Positions 7,402 to 16,127 of a stretch of 32,000 bases of DNA are shown in pieces. The position numbers were made by a program, and so were the translations under genes. The notes under the pieces were generated by a model that saw only the letters and a list, made by a program, of their open reading frames with translations, was not told the DNA's origin and searched no databases. The DNA comes from Archaeoglobus fulgidus DSM 4304 (GTDB lineage: Archaea > Halobacteriota > Archaeoglobi > Archaeoglobales > Archaeoglobaceae), in assembly GCF_000008665.1 (NCBI RefSeq), contig NC_000917.1, positions 150,001 through 182,000 of the forward strand. Reading direction: 5' to 3'. Within the stretch, counting starts at the first letter, position 1, and each line of letters starts with the position of its first letter.

Positions 7402-7971
7402 CTACTCAAAATACCCCTTTCCAGCACACATAAAGCAAACCATCCTTCCATCAACCTCAGCGACGTAATCAGATGGCTGAAGCTCCCCGCATTTCTCACA
7501 TTCAACTATTGGCTCCTTTGTCCCACCCACAGGTATCGTCAGCCTTATTTCTCTAACCTCAAAGTATTCAGGCTCAAGGTTCAGAAACTCCTCAGCCAGC
7601 CTTTTCTCCTCCTCTTTGTTCAGCTTTCCAAGCCTGTAGAGGAATTTCTTTATCAGCTCAGACTTCTTGGCCGCCTCTTTCTTAATCGTCACCCTATAGC
7701 CTTCTCTGGTGTCAAACCTCACAATCGCCAAAGCGAGCTTTCCGTAGTCCTTCACAATCAAATTCCTGTTGCCGGGTGTGGTTCCTGCAACGACCTGCAG
7801 AGCATCGGGCAGGCACATTGCTGTCTCGGCAATCCCAACAAGCCCCTTCCCTCTGAAGTTCACACCAAGCTTTTCGTATGCAATTTGGGCCATCTTTATG
7901 CCCAGAGCCACTCCGGGGCTGAGGTGGCTGTGAAGCTTTGCCGCAAACTCAAGCATCTCGTTTCTGTCCAT
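7402..7971 (-). CDS. FmdE-family protein with C-terminal zinc ribbon
   Basis: 189 aa. The motif HSHLSPGVALGIKMA resembles the FmdE motif FHGHxCPGxAxG. The C-terminus has CEKCG...CFMC (CxxC...CxxC). Confidence 0.65.
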   Translation of the reverse strand: MDRNEMLEFAAKLHSHLSPGVALGIKMAQIAYEKLGVNFRGKGLVGIAETAMCLPDALQVVAGTTPGNRNLIVKDYGKLALAIVRFDTREGYRVTIKKEAAKKSELIKKFLYRLGKLNKEEEKRLAEEFLNLEPEYFEVREIRLTIPVGGTKEPIVECEKCGELQPSDYVAEVDGRMVCFMCAGKGYFE

Positions 7972-10087: not shown

Positions 10088-10993
10088 TCATGCAGTCTTC
10101 GTTTTAACGAGCTTAACCAGCCCCTCAACCTCATCCAAAAACCAGCGCTCGAATTCAGGTCTTTTGACAGCCCTTGCTATATCTTCTTCCAGCTTAAGAA
10201 CTTTTGAGACCTCCAACCATTTTTCCCTTCTGTAAGCTATGATTTCTCCGTCATCAAAGGCTTCAAGAGCTTTTTCGGTCTCCTCCTCACTTCTGAACTT
10301 TAAGCTTGTGTATATGGCCACTCTATCCGAAACGTCACCTCTGAAGACGTAAACGCTGACGATTTTGCCGTTGATATAGCCCATGAAGTGGTCAGTGGCT
10401 TTATCAAACCCCATGGACATGAACTTCTTTTTGACGTGTTCGGGGAGGTCGTCAGTCAAACATCCACAAAGGGCCTTCAGCTTCCCTGTCACAAGCTCCC
10501 TTTCGAATCTTCTGAAGAGTTCAGCTGGAAAGCCCACCACGACCTCCTCGCTGCTGTAACCTCCGAGAACCCTCGCCCCCTCGCACAGAAAGGAGACGTT
10601 GGGCTCCCCCTCTTTGATAACATCCGCCGTTGCCTCACCGCAAACCGCTCTGCTACCGCTAAACCTTGCTACCAGTAAATCTCCAAAAACCTGCCTGAAA
10701 GCTCTTGAAATCTCCATCACCTTTTCGGGGGTAGCTATGACCAGCACGACATCGTAATCTCCCTTTTCATTGTAGGGCTCGATGAGGATGCCCTGAGCCT
10801 CAAATCCCTTCAGAGGCTCAAGAAAAAGGGAAACCTCTGCTCCAGCACAGTTGAAGGCCTTTGCAATTACCCTCCTGTTTGTCGCCTCTCTCACTGCGGA
10901 GCAGAACCTGTCCATGACTTCTCCATCCTCGGTTTCAAGCAGCTTCACTCCAACAGGGCTGTATCTGAGCTGAAAATACCTCCTGAAGCTCAA
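10088..10993 (-). CDS. DUF169-like protein with ~80-aa C-terminal extension
   Basis: 301 aa. The N-terminal ~215 aa (YSPVGVKLL..., Cys-containing core) resemble DUF169/COG2043 proteins from memory. The TTG start overlaps the SepCysS stop (TTGA) and is preceded by GGAGGTGGA. Confidence 0.5.
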   Translation of the reverse strand: MSFRRYFQLRYSPVGVKLLETEDGEVMDRFCSAVREATNRRVIAKAFNCAGAEVSLFLEPLKGFEAQGILIEPYNEKGDYDVVLVIATPEKVMEISRAFRQVFGDLLVARFSGSRAVCGEATADVIKEGEPNVSFLCEGARVLGGYSSEEVVVGFPAELFRRFERELVTGKLKALCGCLTDDLPEHVKKKFMSMGFDKATDHFMGYINGKIVSVYVFRGDVSDRVAIYTSLKFRSEEETEKALEAFDDGEIIAYRREKWLEVSKVLKLEEDIARAVKRPEFERWFLDEVEGLVKLVKTKTA

Positions 10994-12162
10994 TCTTCCA
11001 CCTCCAGGCCATATTTCTCGGCAATCTCCTTGAAGGCCTCAGCAACCCTCTCAACCTCCTCCCAGCTCAGGCCGTAAACGTTGAGCTTAACGTTCCTCGT
11101 CATTCCCGGCTGCACACCAAAAATTCCCCTCTCCTTAAGCTCGTGATAGAGGAAGTATCCCTTCCGCCTGTGCTTTTTAGCTATTAAGTTAAAGGACGGA
11201 GTTTCGAAGTTCATGAGCGTGTGGTTCTTCGGCCTCTCCCCCAGAAGCATAACACCCTCAATCTTTTCCATCTCCTCAACAAACCACCTTGCCTTCTCAA
11301 CCTCCTCCTTCCATCTCTTCACCCTCTCCTTTACTACTGGAAAGGAGGCCATAAGGGTTACAAGGGGAAGGCCGTAAACTGGAGAGCAGCCGAAAAGGGC
11401 AACCTCCTTCTTGGTGAAAGCCCTGCCGCTCCAGTTTCCCCTCACTTCAGAAACCCTGAAAACCCTTTCAGCGAACTCAAAAGTTGTTGCGAGAATTCCG
11501 ATGGGTGCTGTTGCGGCCCAGCTTTTGTGCCCGCTTGCAACAATAAAGTCGCATCCCGTTTCCCTTCCACTCACCTCCATAATCCCTGAGGTGTAGGCTG
11601 TGTTCAAAATAAGCGGAATCCCGTAATCCCTGCATATTTCCGCAACCTTCTTAGCATCTGCCAGATTCCCGTATTTGTAGTCGGCGTGGGTTAGCAGTGC
11701 AACGGCGGGATAATCTCCGGTCTCCTCCTTAACCTTCTCGAAAACATCCGTATAACTCTCAGCCTCTATCCTGAACTCAGGATAGCCCGTGTTGGGAACC
11801 TCGTAAACTCTCAGGCCATTGAGTTCTGCTGCAATGTAGGTAGTGTAGTGGGCGAGGGAGTCCACCACCAAAGCCCCCTTAAACCCGCTCATCGCCACGA
11901 ACTTCGCATGCCTCGCCCCAGCGGTGAACCTCACTTCATCCATACCGAGAAACTCCGCAACCTCTTCCTTGAACCTCTTGACTGGCGGTTTGTCCAGCAG
12001 GTCAACTCTGCCCTCAAGGCAGATATCACACATGCTGTAGCCATCCCCCCACTCTAAAAGCACCTTCCTCGCCTCTTCAGTCAGAATTCCTCCTCTTTGA
12101 ATGGGATGAACGTTAATCATTCCCTTTGATGGTCTCAGCAGTTCCATAGGCTTACTTAACAT
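10990..12162 (-). CDS. pscS: O-phosphoseryl-tRNA:Cys-tRNA synthase (SepCysS) paralog, PLP-dependent
   Basis: Strong resemblance to archaeal SepCysS. Shared motifs include LLEWGDGYSMCDIC (two Cys), GARHAKF, AHYTTY, the PLP-Lys motif ASGHKSWAA, the third Cys in LFGCS, and MASFPVVKERVKRWKEEVEKARWF. The start may instead be the internal ATG at 12147 (MELLRPSKGMINVHP), which gives an N-terminal length closer to the canonical enzyme. Confidence 0.85.
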   Translation of the reverse strand: MLSKPMELLRPSKGMINVHPIQRGGILTEEARKVLLEWGDGYSMCDICLEGRVDLLDKPPVKRFKEEVAEFLGMDEVRFTAGARHAKFVAMSGFKGALVVDSLAHYTTYIAAELNGLRVYEVPNTGYPEFRIEAESYTDVFEKVKEETGDYPAVALLTHADYKYGNLADAKKVAEICRDYGIPLILNTAYTSGIMEVSGRETGCDFIVASGHKSWAATAPIGILATTFEFAERVFRVSEVRGNWSGRAFTKKEVALFGCSPVYGLPLVTLMASFPVVKERVKRWKEEVEKARWFVEEMEKIEGVMLLGERPKNHTLMNFETPSFNLIAKKHRRKGYFLYHELKERGIFGVQPGMTRNVKLNVYGLSWEEVERVAEAFKEIAEKYGLEVED

Positions 12163-12173: not shown

Positions 12174-13214
12174 TTAAGTTTTATCCCGAAGCAGTTTCCT
12201 TCCGATGTTCAGACAGTCCAAGTAAAAGTTTCCTGAGGGGGAAAATTCGAAATCAATTTCGGAGCACATGCAGACGCACGCCGGATTCTTTGTAAACCTG
12301 AACTCCTCAAGCAGGTTGAAATCCGGCATTGGAATGACAAGGGGATAGAAGCCAATAACTTCCTTGCACCTCCTGAAACCCTCGGCAGCAGGGATATAAA
12401 TTGCCTCATCTGCGAGCTCAAAGACCGCCTCAATCTGGGCGTAGGAGGCGAAAATTCCCGGGATGAAGAGGTAAAGCTGGCTGTAGTATGTTTTTGCTGA
12501 AGGAAAAACTTTCTTCTCTGCGCTGAGGTCTTCCAGCTCTTTAAAGCTGATTTGGTGGGAGTTGCGTTTGTAGGTCTCTCCGTCGTATCCAAGCTTTTCC
12601 CTTAGCAGCCTGCCATTCTTCTCTCTCAGAACAAAGAGGGTGTCGAAGATTCTGCCGAAGCTCTCACGATTTAGGTGCAAAAGGGAGTGATGAACGAAGT
12701 CGGCGAGAAAATCGGAAATATCTGTCGTGCGGTTTTTTATCCCTGACCTTTCGGCGATACTGGCGTGGAGATTGAAGGCTGGCTCGTCGCTGCCACAAAG
12801 CTTTATGTCCGCAATGCACTGCCTTTCGACGAAGTCTTCAGCAACTAAGTACTTTCTCACCTCCCATCCCCTTTTCCTTCTTGCAAACTTTGGCATCACA
12901 AGGCTGTACTTGAATGGATTTCTGGTCGTGAAGCCGTCACACAGATACGTGAGGTCAAAACGATCAAGGTCGTATGATCTGCAGAGAACCTCGGCAACGA
13001 TATTTTCGAAGTGTAAGCCAAAAAACTGCCTCCACATACCCCCTCCACTGAAATCAAAGCTGTAATCGTCAACGTCAAAGCCAAAGGTTTTCAAAAAATA
13101 GCTCCGCGCCCTGTAACCACACCTCTCCCTCGCTCTGTACTCCTTCCTCAGGTCATCATAGCTGTTAACGTAGGGCAGAGAAAAATCAAACGAAGATGAA
13201 GTTGTCACCGCCAA
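12174..13214 (-). CDS. Hypothetical 346-aa protein, no confident family assignment
   Basis: A long ORF co-oriented with the sulfur cluster. Its start overlaps the upstream gene by 29 nt. It has a weak PD-(D/E)xK-like pattern ([14 protein letters not shown]) and a C-terminal Cys cluster (CVCMC...C). Confidence 0.5.
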
Positions 13215-13575
13215 GAACCTCTGTCAGCCCGCCGACCTTGTCCACCCATTCCGGTAGCTCATCCTCTCTGAGACCGAAAAGCTCCATGCTGCCGGAGCAC
13301 GCAATGATTCGCATCCGTCCGAACGACTTTCCGAGATTCACAAGTTGCTCCAGCTCTCTCAAAATACCTCTTTTGATGCCGCTCTCAATTGCCTGTCTTT
13401 CCTCATCTCCATCGAAAACCTTCTCTCCTCTGCATATATTTCTCAGAGCCCAGTAGGTGAGAAAAACCTGCACTTCCTCGCCCATTGATGCGAGAACCGA
13501 TGCTATGCTGAATGCATGGTAAATTCTGTCCCACTGTCCGCTGTGGACTATGATTCCGTTAATTCTGTCAGACAT
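13186..13575 (-). CDS. DsrE/DsrF-like sulfur-relay family protein (COG2210-type)
   Basis: [25 protein letters not shown]...[12 protein letters not shown] shows a DsrE-fold pattern with a conserved Cys. I prefer ATG 13575 over the tracked GTG 13584 because a TATA-like box and the palindrome lie directly upstream. Confidence 0.7.
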
Positions 13576-13576
13576 A

Positions 13577-13591
13577 ATGAACACTGTTAAT
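13577..13591. promoter_or_regulatory. Degenerate copy of the same palindrome (atGAACAcTGTTAAt), 2-16 nt upstream of the dsrE-like ATG at 13575
   Basis: The AACAnTGTT core is conserved, and 11 of 14 arm positions match the other two sites. The position relative to the ATG and a TATA-like A/T box is the same as at 16363. Confidence 0.45.
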
Positions 13592-13609
13592 TTCTGAATA
13601 AAAGCTTTA

Positions 13610-13798
13610 TCAGAGCAACCTTCTCGTTCCGCTCTTCAACTGCTCCTGCCTTCTCATCCACCCCGCCTTCCACTTCTGGTAGCAGCCTCTGCTGCAGAAG
13701 GTTACAGGGTGGTCAACGCAGCAGGTTTTGACAACAATCGGGTCCCTTGCGATTTTACCGCAGACATCACAGCGATGCTTTGCCGTACTCTTGTCCAG
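13610..13798 (-). CDS. TRASH / zf-FCS-type metal-binding domain with no canonical start codon; probably the C-terminal part of the upstream HTH protein
   Basis: This is not in the ORF track. The minus-strand frame reads ...FELDKSTAKHRCDVCGKIARDPIVVKTCCVDHPVTFCSRGCYQKWKAGWMRRQEQLKSGTRRLL and stops at 13610-13612. The pattern CxxC-x21-CxxxC matches the TRASH signature C-X2-C-X19-22-C-X3-C. The frame is open back to 13900 but has no ATG, GTG or TTG ahead of the domain. Confidence 0.55.
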   Translation of the reverse strand: MDKSTAKHRCDVCGKIARDPIVVKTCCVDHPVTFCSRGCYQKWKAGWMRRQEQLKSGTRRLL

Positions 13799-13799
13799 C

Positions 13800-14138
13800 T
13801 CAAACGGAATACATCTCTTCCTCGATGAGCCCCTCCTCTCTGAGAATCTCGCAAACTCTGCAGAGGTAATCCACCTCGTCTTCGATGGTAATTCTTCCTG
13901 CTACGAGGTCATCCACGAGCTCTCTTACAATTCTCTTCGCCCCATCGGATTTCTTTATGATGTCCAGCCCCCTCTGTCCCCTTTTGCTCTTGAGGTACTG
14001 CGAAACTGCTGCCTGTGTCAACCCGAGCAAATCTGCAACATCCTTTACCCTGTAACCTCTATCTATTAGCTCAAGCGCAACCTTCGCCCTCAGGGCGGGG
14101 AGTACGTATTTCACCATCATCACGCAGTGCGGTTTCAT
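13800..14138 (-). CDS. Small HTH transcriptional regulator (COG2522-like)
   Basis: 112 aa with a helix-turn-helix segment (VKDVADLLGLTQAAVSQYLKSKRG). The start lies 3 nt after the iscU stop. It is embedded in the sulfur/Fe-S operon. Confidence 0.7.
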   Translation of the reverse strand: MKPHCVMMVKYVLPALRAKVALELIDRGYRVKDVADLLGLTQAAVSQYLKSKRGQRGLDIIKKSDGAKRIVRELVDDLVAGRITIEDEVDYLCRVCEILREEGLIEEEMYSV

Positions 14139-14141
14139 GGC

Positions 14142-14603
14142 TCAAGCCTCACAATACTCTCCGTGGTCGTCCATCTCACCCTTCTCCATCTTCTCAAGTT
14201 CCTTTTCCAGACCTAACTCTTTTATCTTATCAATTTTTCCATTTTTTCTAAAGTAGTCAACTATTGCCCTCCTCAGCGCATCTGCGGCCAAGTTGGAGCA
14301 GTGCATTTTCTGCTTCGGCAAACCGCCAAGGGCTTCGGCAACAGCATCTCTTGTAATTTTCAGAGCTTCCTCTATAGTTTTCCCCTTCGCCATCTCAGTG
14401 GCCATGCTGCTGGTTGCAATGGCAGCAGCGCAGCCAAAGGTCTGGAACTTGATATCCTCAATTCTGTTGTCCTTCACTTTAATGTAAATGGTCATCAAAT
14501 CCCCGCAAACTGGATTGCCGACAGTTCCTACACCATCAGCATCCTCAATTTTTCCAACATTCCTCGGATTCTGGAAGTGGTCGAAAACCTTATCACTATA
14601 CAT
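14142..14603 (-). CDS. iscU: IscU/NifU-type Fe-S cluster scaffold with acidic/Lys-rich C-terminal tail
   Basis: MYSDKVFDHFQNPRNVG...GNPVCGDLM...FGCAAAIATSS...MHCSNLA carries the three scaffold Cys. ATG 14603 is preceded by GGAGGTGA. The tracked start at 14612 is a GTG. Confidence 0.9.
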   Translation of the reverse strand: MYSDKVFDHFQNPRNVGKIEDADGVGTVGNPVCGDLMTIYIKVKDNRIEDIKFQTFGCAAAIATSSMATEMAKGKTIEEALKITRDAVAEALGGLPKQKMHCSNLAADALRRAIVDYFRKNGKIDKIKELGLEKELEKMEKGEMDDHGEYCEA

Positions 14604-14608
14604 AGCCC

Positions 14609-15757
14609 TCACCTCCTGTAGAGAGGAGACATGCTCCTCAGCCTCTCAATCACGCCCGGCAGCACCTCAAGCAGCCTGTCAACATCTTCGTCAGTGTTGT
14701 ATCTGCCCAGCGTCAAAAGCAGAGTGCCGTGCGCCTCCTCATGCTTCAGCCCACACGCCATGAGAACATGGCTTGGCTGCAAGGTTTTTGAGCTGCACGC
14801 CGAGCCGGTTGAAGCCTGAATTCCCGCCATGTCAAGGCTCAAAACGATTGACTCTCCCTCAATGTAGCTGAATCTCACGTTTACATTGTTGGGCAGCCTT
14901 TTTTCAGGATGGCCGTTTAGGTAGCTTTCCTCAATTTTCAGAACGTTATCGATTATCCTATCTCTCAACCTTCTGAGCCTCCCAGCCTCCTCTCCCCACT
15001 CCTTTGCGGTGATTTCAGCGGCTTTACCAAATCCAACTATCGCAGGAACGTTTTCACTACCACTCCTGAGCCCTTTTTCCTGCCCACCTCCGAGAATTAT
15101 CGGCTGCAACCTCACTCCCTGCCTTACCCAAAGCGCCCCCACTCCTTTGGGGCCGTAAATGTCGTTGCTTGAAATAGTCAGCATATCAGCACCGATCTTC
15201 TCAACATCCACCTCAATTTGCCCGAGAGAGGCTGTAGCATCAACGTGCAGAGCTGCTCTACCGTTAATTATTTCTGAAATCTCCTTTATGGGCTGAATCG
15301 TTCCAATTTCGTTGTTTGCATGCTGAACAGAAACAAGAATCGTGTCTTCCCTGATTTTCTCCTCAATAAATTCAAGGTCGACGGTGCCGTATTTGTCCAC
15401 TGGGATGAATTCAACCTCAAATCCCTGCTTCTGAAGATACTTTGCCGGATTTATGACGGACATGTGCTCAATTGATGAAACGAGAACGTGCTTACCCTTT
15501 CTGGCGTTTCTCATCGCATATCCAATGAGAGCGAGGTTGTTGGACTCCGTGGCACCTGAGGTGAAAACGATGTCCCCGCCACCACCATTTATCAGCTCCG
15601 AAATCTTCCCCCTTGCCTCCTCAATCACCTCTCTTGCTTTAAAGCCGTAGGAGTGGACTGAGGAAGGATTTCCGAAGTGCTCGGTCATGTAGGGAAGCAT
15701 TGCTTCAACAACCCTCTCATCCACAGGCTTTGTGGAGGCGTAGTCAAAGTAGGGCAT
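14609..15757 (-). CDS. iscS: IscS/NifS-like class V aminotransferase-fold protein in which the PLP-binding Lys is replaced by Asp
   Basis: From [16 protein letters not shown]... (ATG 15757, preceded by GAGGTGGTGG) the protein is 382 aa. The Cys loop GSACSS is present. The canonical S-x-H-K-x-x-G-P-K-G motif reads [10 protein letters not shown]. The tracked upstream start (15823) would overlap the preceding gene. Confidence 0.9.
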
Positions 15758-15767
15758 TTCCACCACC

Positions 15768-16127
15768 TCAGAAATAGAGCACACCATCCGCCTCAAGAAC
15801 GAGCTGGTTGAGCGTTGCAGCACCTACAATCTTGACACCATCAACAATCTCTCCCTTATCAATCCCAAGGAGTTCGGAGCTTCTGTCGCAAACCATCATC
15901 TCAACCCCGCTTTCCCTTGCCTGTTTCATTAACTCACTCAGCGGCGGAAAGTTTCCCATCTTAATTTTCTCAGCATTATCCTTTTTAACAACTGTTACAC
16001 CCTTGATAACAAAGTAAATGATTGCATCATCTCCCATGGCCTTGGCGGTCATTGCGAGGACGAAGGGAGCGTAGAGCCTTTCGGGAGTGTCGATACCGCT
16101 CGTCTGAACGTAAAGCAGCTTCGCCAT
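15768..16127 (-). CDS. DsrE-family sulfur-relay protein
   Basis: 119 aa. [25 protein letters not shown]...MMVCDRS fits the DsrE fold. GGAGGTGA lies upstream, and the gene abuts the tusA-like stop. Confidence 0.75.

Follow-up and report, generated by a model that had tools for sequence, protein, structure and literature searches.

A SepCysS paralog of Archaeoglobus fulgidus is translationally coupled to a cysteine-rich, two-domain DUF169 protein, a candidate sulfur-delivery partner in tRNA-dependent cysteine synthesis

In a 32,000-nucleotide (nt) stretch of the Archaeoglobus fulgidus DSM 4304 genome (hereafter, the window), we analyzed a paralog of SepCysS, the enzyme that converts Sep-tRNA(Cys) to Cys-tRNA(Cys), together with the two-domain DUF169 protein encoded immediately downstream of it, which we call DUF169x. 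The two genes are translationally coupled and conserved as a pair among sulfur-related genes, and both proteins carry invariant cysteines. Sequence comparisons strongly support a partnership of SepCysS and DUF169x. They also lead us to favor, with considerable reservation, a model in which the two proteins form one complex, where DUF169x either supplies the sulfur for Sep-tRNA(Cys) or activates it; we infer the parts of this model that concern physical interaction, the direction in which sulfur flows, and its chemical form. The tRNA-dependent pathway is the only cysteine route in many methanogens. The identity of its natural sulfur donor has been in question ever since the first description of the pathway, and the donor used by SepCysS in vivo awaits investigation (PMC2330236).

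The SepCysS paralog (390 amino acids, ATG start; 10990..12162 on the minus strand) scored 511.7 bits on TIGR02539 (cut-off 365.25) and 579.7 on NF006810 (cut-off 301), and it matched the solved SepCysS structures 3wkr, 5x6b, and 2e7i with E values of about 1e-108 to 1e-110. The original prediction, made from the window sequence, had stated that the pyridoxal phosphate (PLP)-binding lysine, the cysteines of the MCDIC and FGCS motifs, and the Arg/His-Tyr residues of the phosphoserine pocket were all retained. This was borne out: C45 and C48 (MCDIC), R84, H105-Y106, K213 (SGHKS), and C259 (FGCS) are present and are invariant in 20 diverse SepCysS proteins as well as in 128 further sequences. The window itself contains a single SepCysS, and its designation as a second copy rests on comparison with 2e7i, which we take to be A. 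fulgidus AF0028. The window protein is only 50% identical to this crystal-structure sequence and likewise 50% identical to Methanocaldococcus jannaschii SepCysS. Since it is a SepCysS by sequence criteria and shares just half of its residues with AF0028, it is a genuine second A. fulgidus SepCysS gene, as had been claimed. To our knowledge, only AF0028-, M. jannaschii-, and bacterial-type SepCysS enzymes have been assayed for Sep-tRNA(Cys) conversion. The presence of two SepCysS copies in one genome is a known phenomenon (PMC5424206).

The two SepCysS types are distributed differently. Window-type SepCysS was found in A. fulgidus and in metagenome-assembled genomes (MAGs) of Archaeoglobus, Geoglobus, and Ferroglobus; it was not found in the cultured A. 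veneficus, A. sulfaticallidus, A. neptunius, and Geoglobus ahangari, which encode AF0028-type proteins. Outside the class, its closest relatives occur in Methermicoccus (68% identity), Methanoperedens (62%), anaerobic methanotrophic archaea of the ANME-2 group, other Methanosarcinales, and Hadarchaeota. Genomes such as those of A. fulgidus and Methanosarcinales contain both types. The AF0028-type gene is flanked by the translation genes for IleRS, eIF5A, ABCE1, and a DRG GTPase (locus L125, 5001-6119), and its Methanosarcina counterpart by genes for a diphthamide synthase, an exosome subunit, and the RNA polymerase L subunit (L126, 4001-5161). This translation-gene setting contrasts with the sulfur islands in which the DUF169-linked type resides.

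The junction between the SepCysS and DUF169x genes lies at 10990..11005 on the minus strand and reads GGCCTGGAGGTGGAAGATTGAGC. The TTG start codon of DUF169x (10993-10991) and the TGA stop codon of SepCysS (10992-10990) form a 4-nt overlap, preceded by GGAGGTGGA at 11005-10997, exactly as the original prediction had described. The TTG start is backed by the conserved N terminus of the homologs (M/L-SFRR). In addition, all Archaeoglobi-type junctions with a 4-nt overlap show GGAGGTGGA(A/G)GA-TTG-A, either unchanged or with up to two substitutions.

We recovered 44 complete SepCysS–DUF169x pairs, 35 with SepCysS preceding DUF169 and nine in the reversed order. They come from Archaeoglobi, Methermicoccus shengliensis, Methanoperedens, Methanococcoides vulcani, Hadarchaeaceae, Hydrothermarchaeota, Altiarchaeota, and bacterial MAGs and span at least seven lineages, with organisms named as in the titles of their sequence records. 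An exact 4-nt start/stop overlap was present in 21 of the 44, and 4-nt overlaps were seen in both gene orders; as open reading frame (ORF) starts in the fetched loci were picked automatically, some of the reported intergenic gaps are artifacts. Archaeoglobi have the order SepCysS–DUF169, usually with the same 4-nt overlap as in the window. The reversed order occurs in most Hydrothermarchaeota loci, in the Altiarchaeota locus, and in the bacterial MAGs, often again with a 4-nt overlap, while L019 and L020 (the latter labeled Hydrothermarchaeota) retain SepCysS–DUF169. A pattern-based genome scan with the DUF169 protein as the query yielded 35 loci, and SepCysS directly adjoined the DUF169 gene in every long-form locus with enough flanking sequence. 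Context look-ups added pairs in cultured Methermicoccus shengliensis, Candidatus Methanoperedens, and Hadarchaeaceae, and found none in Methanopyrus kandleri; cultured Methanococcoides vulcani also has the pair, with a 4-nt overlap. A tiny family centered on Archaeoglobi, as the word search and the pattern scan had indicated, proved to be a sensitivity artifact, given the pairs found later in Methermicoccus, Methanoperedens, Methanococcoides, and Hadarchaeota. In a SepCysS tree built by neighbor-joining only, the linked SepCysS proteins fell in at least three separate places, and the genes around the pair vary from locus to locus while the pair stays intact. Contrary to one of the refuting observations that the original prediction had named, the adjacency is clearly not unique to A. 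fulgidus, and the pairing, no peculiarity of one paralog, is a property of a whole SepCysS clade that includes cultured methanogens. The proposal that the coupled proteins are stoichiometric partners is strongly supported by this comparative evidence, namely by the number and spread of the pairs, the two gene orders, and the exact overlaps.

The same clade stood out when the census was taken from the SepCysS side, using a metagenome scan with a broad SepCysS alignment and the 80 best loci. Among the 15 loci closest to the window SepCysS (57-83% identity), 13 had a long DUF169 gene directly downstream; of the other two, one had DUF169 1.5 kb away and one had no downstream flank. The 65 SepCysS loci at greater distance all lacked long DUF169; two of them had a short DUF169 gene, divergently oriented and about 100 nt upstream of SepCysS. 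We also compared 44 linked with 84 unlinked SepCysS sequences for positions conserved in at least 90% of the former and at most 15% of the latter. Just four passed (E50, L55, K251, and F257), with F257 in 100% of linked and 1% of unlinked proteins, and all four lie within a few residues of the catalytic C45, C48, and C259. An 8-residue (R)GxWSGR insertion, which characterizes the clade of the window SepCysS and is absent from AF0028- and M. jannaschii-type enzymes, was considered as a DUF169-specific interface and rejected: many SepCysS sequences share it, among them unlinked ones such as that of M. kandleri, and it is therefore no DUF169 signature.

DUF169x (301 amino acids, TTG start; 10088..10993, minus strand), the product of the final gene of the operon, scored 82.7 bits on Pfam DUF169 (PF02596; cut-off 27), and its homologs span profile positions 3-206 of 209. 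A word-indexed search returned only 25 DUF169x clusters among 5.8 billion. A full hidden Markov model search of 1.84 billion representatives returned 623 DUF169-like proteins, about 20 of which were two-domain long forms, the others being short (~200 amino acids) and generic (230-280 amino acids) forms. An AlphaFold2 model of DUF169x (mean predicted local distance difference test score [pLDDT] of 87) comprised an N-terminal DUF169 domain (residues 1-170; 10484..10993), a linker loop (residues 172-178; 10460..10480) that was the only segment with a pLDDT below 50, and a C-terminal domain (residues 180-301; 10091..10456) with the secondary-structure order alpha-beta-beta-beta-alpha-beta-beta-alpha. 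The protein has exactly six cysteines, all at conserved positions. Four of them (C31, C49, C118, and C137), together with R141, are invariant in 24 sampled long, short, and generic DUF169 members, and each of the four is placed at a helix N terminus in the model. The remaining two form the C176-G-C178 motif of the loop, which is found in all 44 long forms and is absent from short and generic DUF169 proteins. Generic DUF169/COG2043 proteins (PF02596) thus share the N-domain with its four cysteines and arginine, whereas the SepCysS-linked form, and only this form, adds the CGC loop and a C-domain of about 120 residues. Across the 44 pairs, C137, R141, C176, G177, C178, D182, D201, R256, and W259 are invariant. 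Some pair-bearing genomes encode a second DUF169 paralog elsewhere (L033 and L034, from the same MAGs as L021 and L029, and L017); these proteins of about 185-205 (L033, L034) or 242 (L017) amino acids have no CGC loop, C-domain, or adjacent SepCysS.

DUF169 was the only Pfam family found in all 25 DUF169x members, and a Pfam scan of these members at E values up to 1 detected no TusA, DsrE/TusD, rhodanese, ThiS/MoaD, or SufE/SufU. Neither a sequence profile nor a Foldseek fold search found a solved structure for the DUF169 domain: the profile of the 25 members against Protein Data Bank (PDB) chains, at E values up to 10, gave no relevant match, returning only a designed helix bundle (E = 7.5), and Foldseek gave no PDB match for the N-terminal domain. 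Weak Foldseek matches of DUF169x to YbjN and to type III secretion chaperones (template modeling score on the target, ~0.5) probably fall on the C-domain of the model; they were placed there because of the secondary-structure order, as the aligned query residues were not reported.

The genes surrounding the pair point to sulfur metabolism. When three genes on either side of 30 pairs were scanned (145 ORFs), the most frequent neighbors were TusA (17), ThiI (10), ThiF (8), TauE (6), sulfite reductase (5), and IscS-like proteins (5); ATP sulfurylase and PAPS reductase were found as well. Genes for APS-reductase-like, LarE-like, ThiS-like, and ThrC-like proteins were recognized by eye or, in Methermicoccus, from precomputed Pfam hits. 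In Methermicoccus, the pair is followed in order by genes for TusA, ThiF, ThiS, a PLP enzyme, DsrE2, TusA, and ATP sulfurylase. In the window, the genes upstream of the pair on the same strand encode a DsrE-like protein, a 346-residue protein, a helix-turn-helix (HTH) regulator, IscU, IscS, and another DsrE-like protein. DsrE-like homologs also occur within a few kilobases of the pair in L006-L008, L010, L012, and L017, and both IscS and IscU lie within 3 kb of it in L004, L008, and L010-L012. A short DUF169 gene overlaps a TusA gene by 4 nt in a Bacillota MAG (L035, 2233-8596), in a cluster whose translations, read by eye, include ThrC-like, two ThiS, two ThiF, JAB, CysK/M-like, and LarE-like proteins. 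DUF169 is thus tied, also where SepCysS is missing, to cysteine synthesis that depends on protein carriers.

SepCysS clades without DUF169 have their own recurrent neighbors. In 65 selected ORFs flanking the 65 distant SepCysS genes of the census, we found ThiF 16 times, ThiS 8 times, and ThiI 6-7 times, together with JAB and NIL domains. In a sister locus of the Archaeoglobi clade, ThiF starts 2 nt after SepCysS, at the usual place of DUF169. Many non-DUF169 SepCysS genes are tightly flanked by ThiF, ThiS, ThiI, and JAB genes (L060-L124), with overlaps often of -1 to -8 nt. Such tight flanking suggests a thiocarboxylate sulfur supply for these SepCysS clades.

On this basis, we propose that SepCysS and DUF169x would form a physical complex made in fixed proportion, which would convert Sep-tRNA(Cys) to Cys-tRNA(Cys) with sulfur from protein carriers. 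DUF169x may take sulfane sulfur from TusA- or DsrE-type carriers, or sulfur from the ThiS/ThiF thiocarboxylate route, encoded nearby, and may hold it on invariant cysteines, namely C137 and those of the flexible C176-G-C178 loop; the C31/C49/C118/C137 site could also bind a metal or an iron-sulfur center. The sulfur would then pass from DUF169x to the three catalytic cysteines of SepCysS, which would attack the PLP-bound dehydroalanyl-tRNA. In A. fulgidus, the linked copy would be tied to sulfur assimilation and the AF0028-type copy would serve as the housekeeping enzyme. The suggestion in the original prediction that DUF169 is a sulfur donor or adaptor for this copy finds support, short of proof, in the sulfur-gene context and the invariant cysteines.

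Several observations weigh against this model. In vitro, SepCysS works with sulfide as its sole sulfur source (PMC2330236). In the A. fulgidus window, TusA does not directly neighbor the pair, and the nearby genes of this kind are limited to those for DsrE-like proteins and IscS/IscU. The distance matrices of SepCysS and DUF169 are correlated (r=0.76, a value reached by none of 2000 Mantel permutations), which counts in favor of the model, yet such a correlation is expected for any two co-inherited genes. Finally, the three Hadarchaeota-like pairs L044, L055, and L057 lack one or two N-domain cysteines apiece, with C31, C49, and C118 each substituted in between one and three of these sequences. 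A four-cysteine center in the N-domain is therefore not universally required, and the idea of a universal four-cysteine cluster site in DUF169x is weakened.

An alternative that we consider unlikely is that DUF169x is a redox or cofactor maintenance partner that keeps SepCysS active and carries no substrate sulfur. It might reduce a disulfide or persulfide of the catalytic cysteines after turnover, by means of an iron-sulfur center or the CGC dithiol, or it might insert or repair an iron-sulfur cluster of SepCysS, which has been cited as an iron-sulfur protein (PMC5424206). The four cysteines and the arginine invariant in the sampled DUF169 proteins, with the cysteines at helix N termini, would fit a metal or cluster site, and the CGC motif has a spacing typical of redox dithiols. 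The IscS and IscU genes near the pair in the window and in several other Archaeoglobi loci point in the same direction, as does a thioredoxin-like gene that directly precedes SepCysS in Methermicoccus, Methanoperedens, and Methanococcoides (described below). However, the commonest neighbors of the pair are sulfur carriers and activators (TusA, ThiF, and ThiS) rather than reductases or electron carriers, a ThiS/ThiF sulfur-donor system occupies the equivalent position in other SepCysS clades, and AF0028- and M. jannaschii-type SepCysS work without such a partner.

It is quite improbable that DUF169x is instead a SepCysE-like scaffold or adaptor that bridges SepCysS to SepRS, tRNA(Cys), or both and takes no part in sulfur chemistry. 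Such a role would suit Archaeoglobi, which are reported to be without SepCysE, and the occasional occurrence of DUF169 in SepRS clusters of archaea of the TACK (Thaumarchaeota, Aigarchaeota, Crenarchaeota, and Korarchaeota) group (PMC8762117). It would also suit the C-domain, which probably accounts for the weak Foldseek matches to protein-binding folds (YbjN and type III secretion chaperones) and in which an RNA-binding RRM fold was considered, since RRM_1 hits were obtained for 10 of the 25 DUF169x members. The RRM assignment was rejected: all of the hits were below the gathering score, the beta-beta-beta-alpha-beta-beta order in the AlphaFold2 model differs from the RRM topology, and the charge of the domain, acidic to neutral in most lineages, is not conserved, the last being a weak argument against RNA binding. 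Resemblance to SepCysE was not found either; the search of the DUF169x profile against PDB chains gave nothing but the helix bundle mentioned above, and no SepCysE-containing entry (such as 3wkr, 3wks, and 5x6b) was among the 50 best Foldseek matches. Moreover, a pure scaffold would leave the invariant cysteines unexplained, and SepRS was found in none of the 124 loci searched. The original prediction had remarked on the lack of pathway partners near the paralog. For SepRS and tRNA this stands in the window, in which tblastn found no SepRS and ARAGORN no tRNA genes; for SepCysE, at which no direct search was aimed, it agrees with the reported lack of this protein in Archaeoglobi (PMC8762117). 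The absence of SepRS is unremarkable: SepRS does not adjoin SepCysS in Euryarchaeota as a norm (PMC5424206, PMC8762117), so the missing linkage is not unusual in itself, and A. fulgidus is reported to encode SepRS elsewhere (PMC2330236).

We regard as very doubtful the further possibility, also raised in the original prediction, that the pair acts on another substrate, such as free or carrier-bound O-phosphoserine, or in the synthesis of a persulfide or thiol cofactor, and that the AF0028-type copy does all of the tRNA work. A division of this kind would agree with the coexistence of both SepCysS types in A. fulgidus and Methanosarcinales, with the location of the linked copy in sulfur-assimilation islands and of the AF0028 type among translation genes, and with the presence of a tRNA-Cys gene near only one of the 28 pairs scanned. 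That one case, however, speaks for tRNA work: in L032, from an uncultured archaeon, a tRNA-Cys(GCA) gene (7525-7598) lies 2.4 kb upstream of a DUF169–SepCysS pair, and the SepCysS of this pair clusters with its counterpart from the Altiarchaeota locus L023. The window SepCysS also clears the equivalog cut-off by a wide margin, with none of the catalytic or phosphoserine-pocket residues missing, and among complete genomes Mukai et al. found none that had SepCysS without SepRS (PMC5424206). That the adjacency is mere inherited synteny with no functional connection is extremely implausible, for although most pairs come from related euryarchaeal lineages and the distance correlation is what co-inheritance would give, the pair survives reversal of gene order with 4-nt overlaps in both orders, is carried by at least three SepCysS lineages and by bacterial MAGs, keeps together while the surrounding genes differ, and includes every long DUF169 seen with flanking sequence available.

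The proposed sulfur-delivery complex can be compared with several known systems. In the SepCysS–SepCysE–SepRS transsulfursome of class I methanogens (3wkr, 5x6b), SepCysS likewise has a dedicated, small, lineage-restricted partner. DUF169x has no sequence or fold similarity to SepCysE and occurs in lineages reported to be without it, such as Archaeoglobi (PMC8762117); SepCysE serves as a helical scaffold and has a tail that binds tRNA, whereas DUF169x is cysteine-rich and encoded among sulfur-carrier genes, not beside SepRS. The CysO–CysM–MoeZ/Mec system of the Mycobacterium tuberculosis type and HcyS/HcyF are alike in that a PLP enzyme exchanges the phosphate of O-phosphoserine for sulfur from a carrier protein, and ThiS, ThiF, and JAB flank many SepCysS genes, with a short DUF169 gene sitting in one such cluster. 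In those systems, free O-phosphoserine accepts sulfur that a ThiS-like protein donates as a C-terminal thiocarboxylate; DUF169x, in contrast, has no GG tail or ubiquitin fold, and the substrate of the pair is presumed to be tRNA-bound. SufS–SufE/SufU and IscS–TusA/IscU resemble the pair in combining a fold-type I PLP enzyme with a small partner that carries sulfur on a mobile-loop cysteine, and their genes are often translationally coupled too. Unlike in these cysteine desulfurase pairs, sulfur would flow in the opposite direction, from the carrier to the PLP enzyme and on to the product, and DUF169x gives no Pfam hits to SufE, SufU, or TusA. Archaeal ThiI and Ncs6/TtuA, which insert sulfur in a cluster-dependent manner, share with the pair three conserved cysteines, sulfide- or carrier-derived sulfur, and a tRNA-linked reaction, and ThiI is among the commonest neighbors of the pair; DUF169x, however, contains neither a PP-loop nor an ATP-binding domain.

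Neither a description or functional study of the SepCysS–DUF169 pair nor an assigned function for DUF169/COG2043 was found in the searchable literature, which did not extend to the figures of the Mukai papers; in the supplements of these two papers, DUF169 goes unmentioned. A DUF169 member adjoining TauE has been noted (PMC4001038). What is new here is a candidate accessory subunit for the known SepCysS system, the sole reported link being the SepRS clusters mentioned above (PMC8762117).

The remaining genes of the window locus lie on the minus strand upstream of SepCysS. The 346-residue hypothetical protein (12174..13214) is lineage-specific; its gene ends 11 nt 5′ of SepCysS, and the two are probably in one transcription unit. 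It had no Pfam or NCBIfam match, and the one homolog found is in the closest relative, L001, where it occupies the corresponding place. Its C terminus is cysteine-rich (ACVCMCSE...). The start of its gene is overlapped by that of a DsrE/DsrE2-like sulfur-carrier homolog of 132 amino acids (13186..13584; Pfam DrsE_2, 1.8e-11). The IscU, IscS, and second DsrE-like genes, identified by NCBIfam matches, follow upstream of the operon (14142..16127). The IscS homolog (14609-15823) falls below the NifS and IscS equivalog cut-offs and has SSND in place of the SGHK motif with the PLP-binding lysine; this fits the unusual A. fulgidus IscS that has been published as lacking this lysine. A start-less frame (13609-13900) overlaps, in a different frame, the 3′ end of the HTH regulator gene (13800-14138) and contains a cysteine-rich motif, CDVCGK...CCVDHPVTFCSRGCYQKW, that resembles a TRASH or zinc-ribbon metal-binding domain. 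Possible explanations are a frameshifted HTH–TRASH metalloregulator, a sequencing error, or a real frameshift. Elsewhere, a small Thioredoxin_3 gene (82-103 amino acids) directly precedes SepCysS in Methermicoccus, Methanoperedens, and Methanococcoides (L036, 5748-5996; L040, 4747-4998; L042, 3642-3953). This recurrent trio of thioredoxin-like, SepCysS, and DUF169 genes is absent from the A. fulgidus window.

A conserved, translationally coupled, and cysteine-rich partner of a large SepCysS clade is a directly testable candidate for the sulfur donor of tRNA-dependent cysteine synthesis. The clade includes cultured Methermicoccus, Methanococcoides, and A. fulgidus, and the proteins of these organisms are amenable to expression and assay. 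More tentatively, the comparisons allow the possibility that DUF169 is a previously unrecognized sulfur-trafficking family whose two-domain form acts in a heteromeric SepCysS as the subunit that donates the physiological sulfur. If so, this would be the first function for DUF169/COG2043, a widespread domain, and would explain why many archaea have two SepCysS types, one amid translation genes and one in sulfur-assimilation islands. Cysteine synthesis on tRNA would then be fed by a relay from TusA/DsrE through DUF169 to SepCysS, and not by free sulfide, in Methanosarcinales, Methanoperedens, Archaeoglobi, Hadarchaeota, and their relatives, and ThiS/ThiF would fill the equivalent role in other SepCysS clades.

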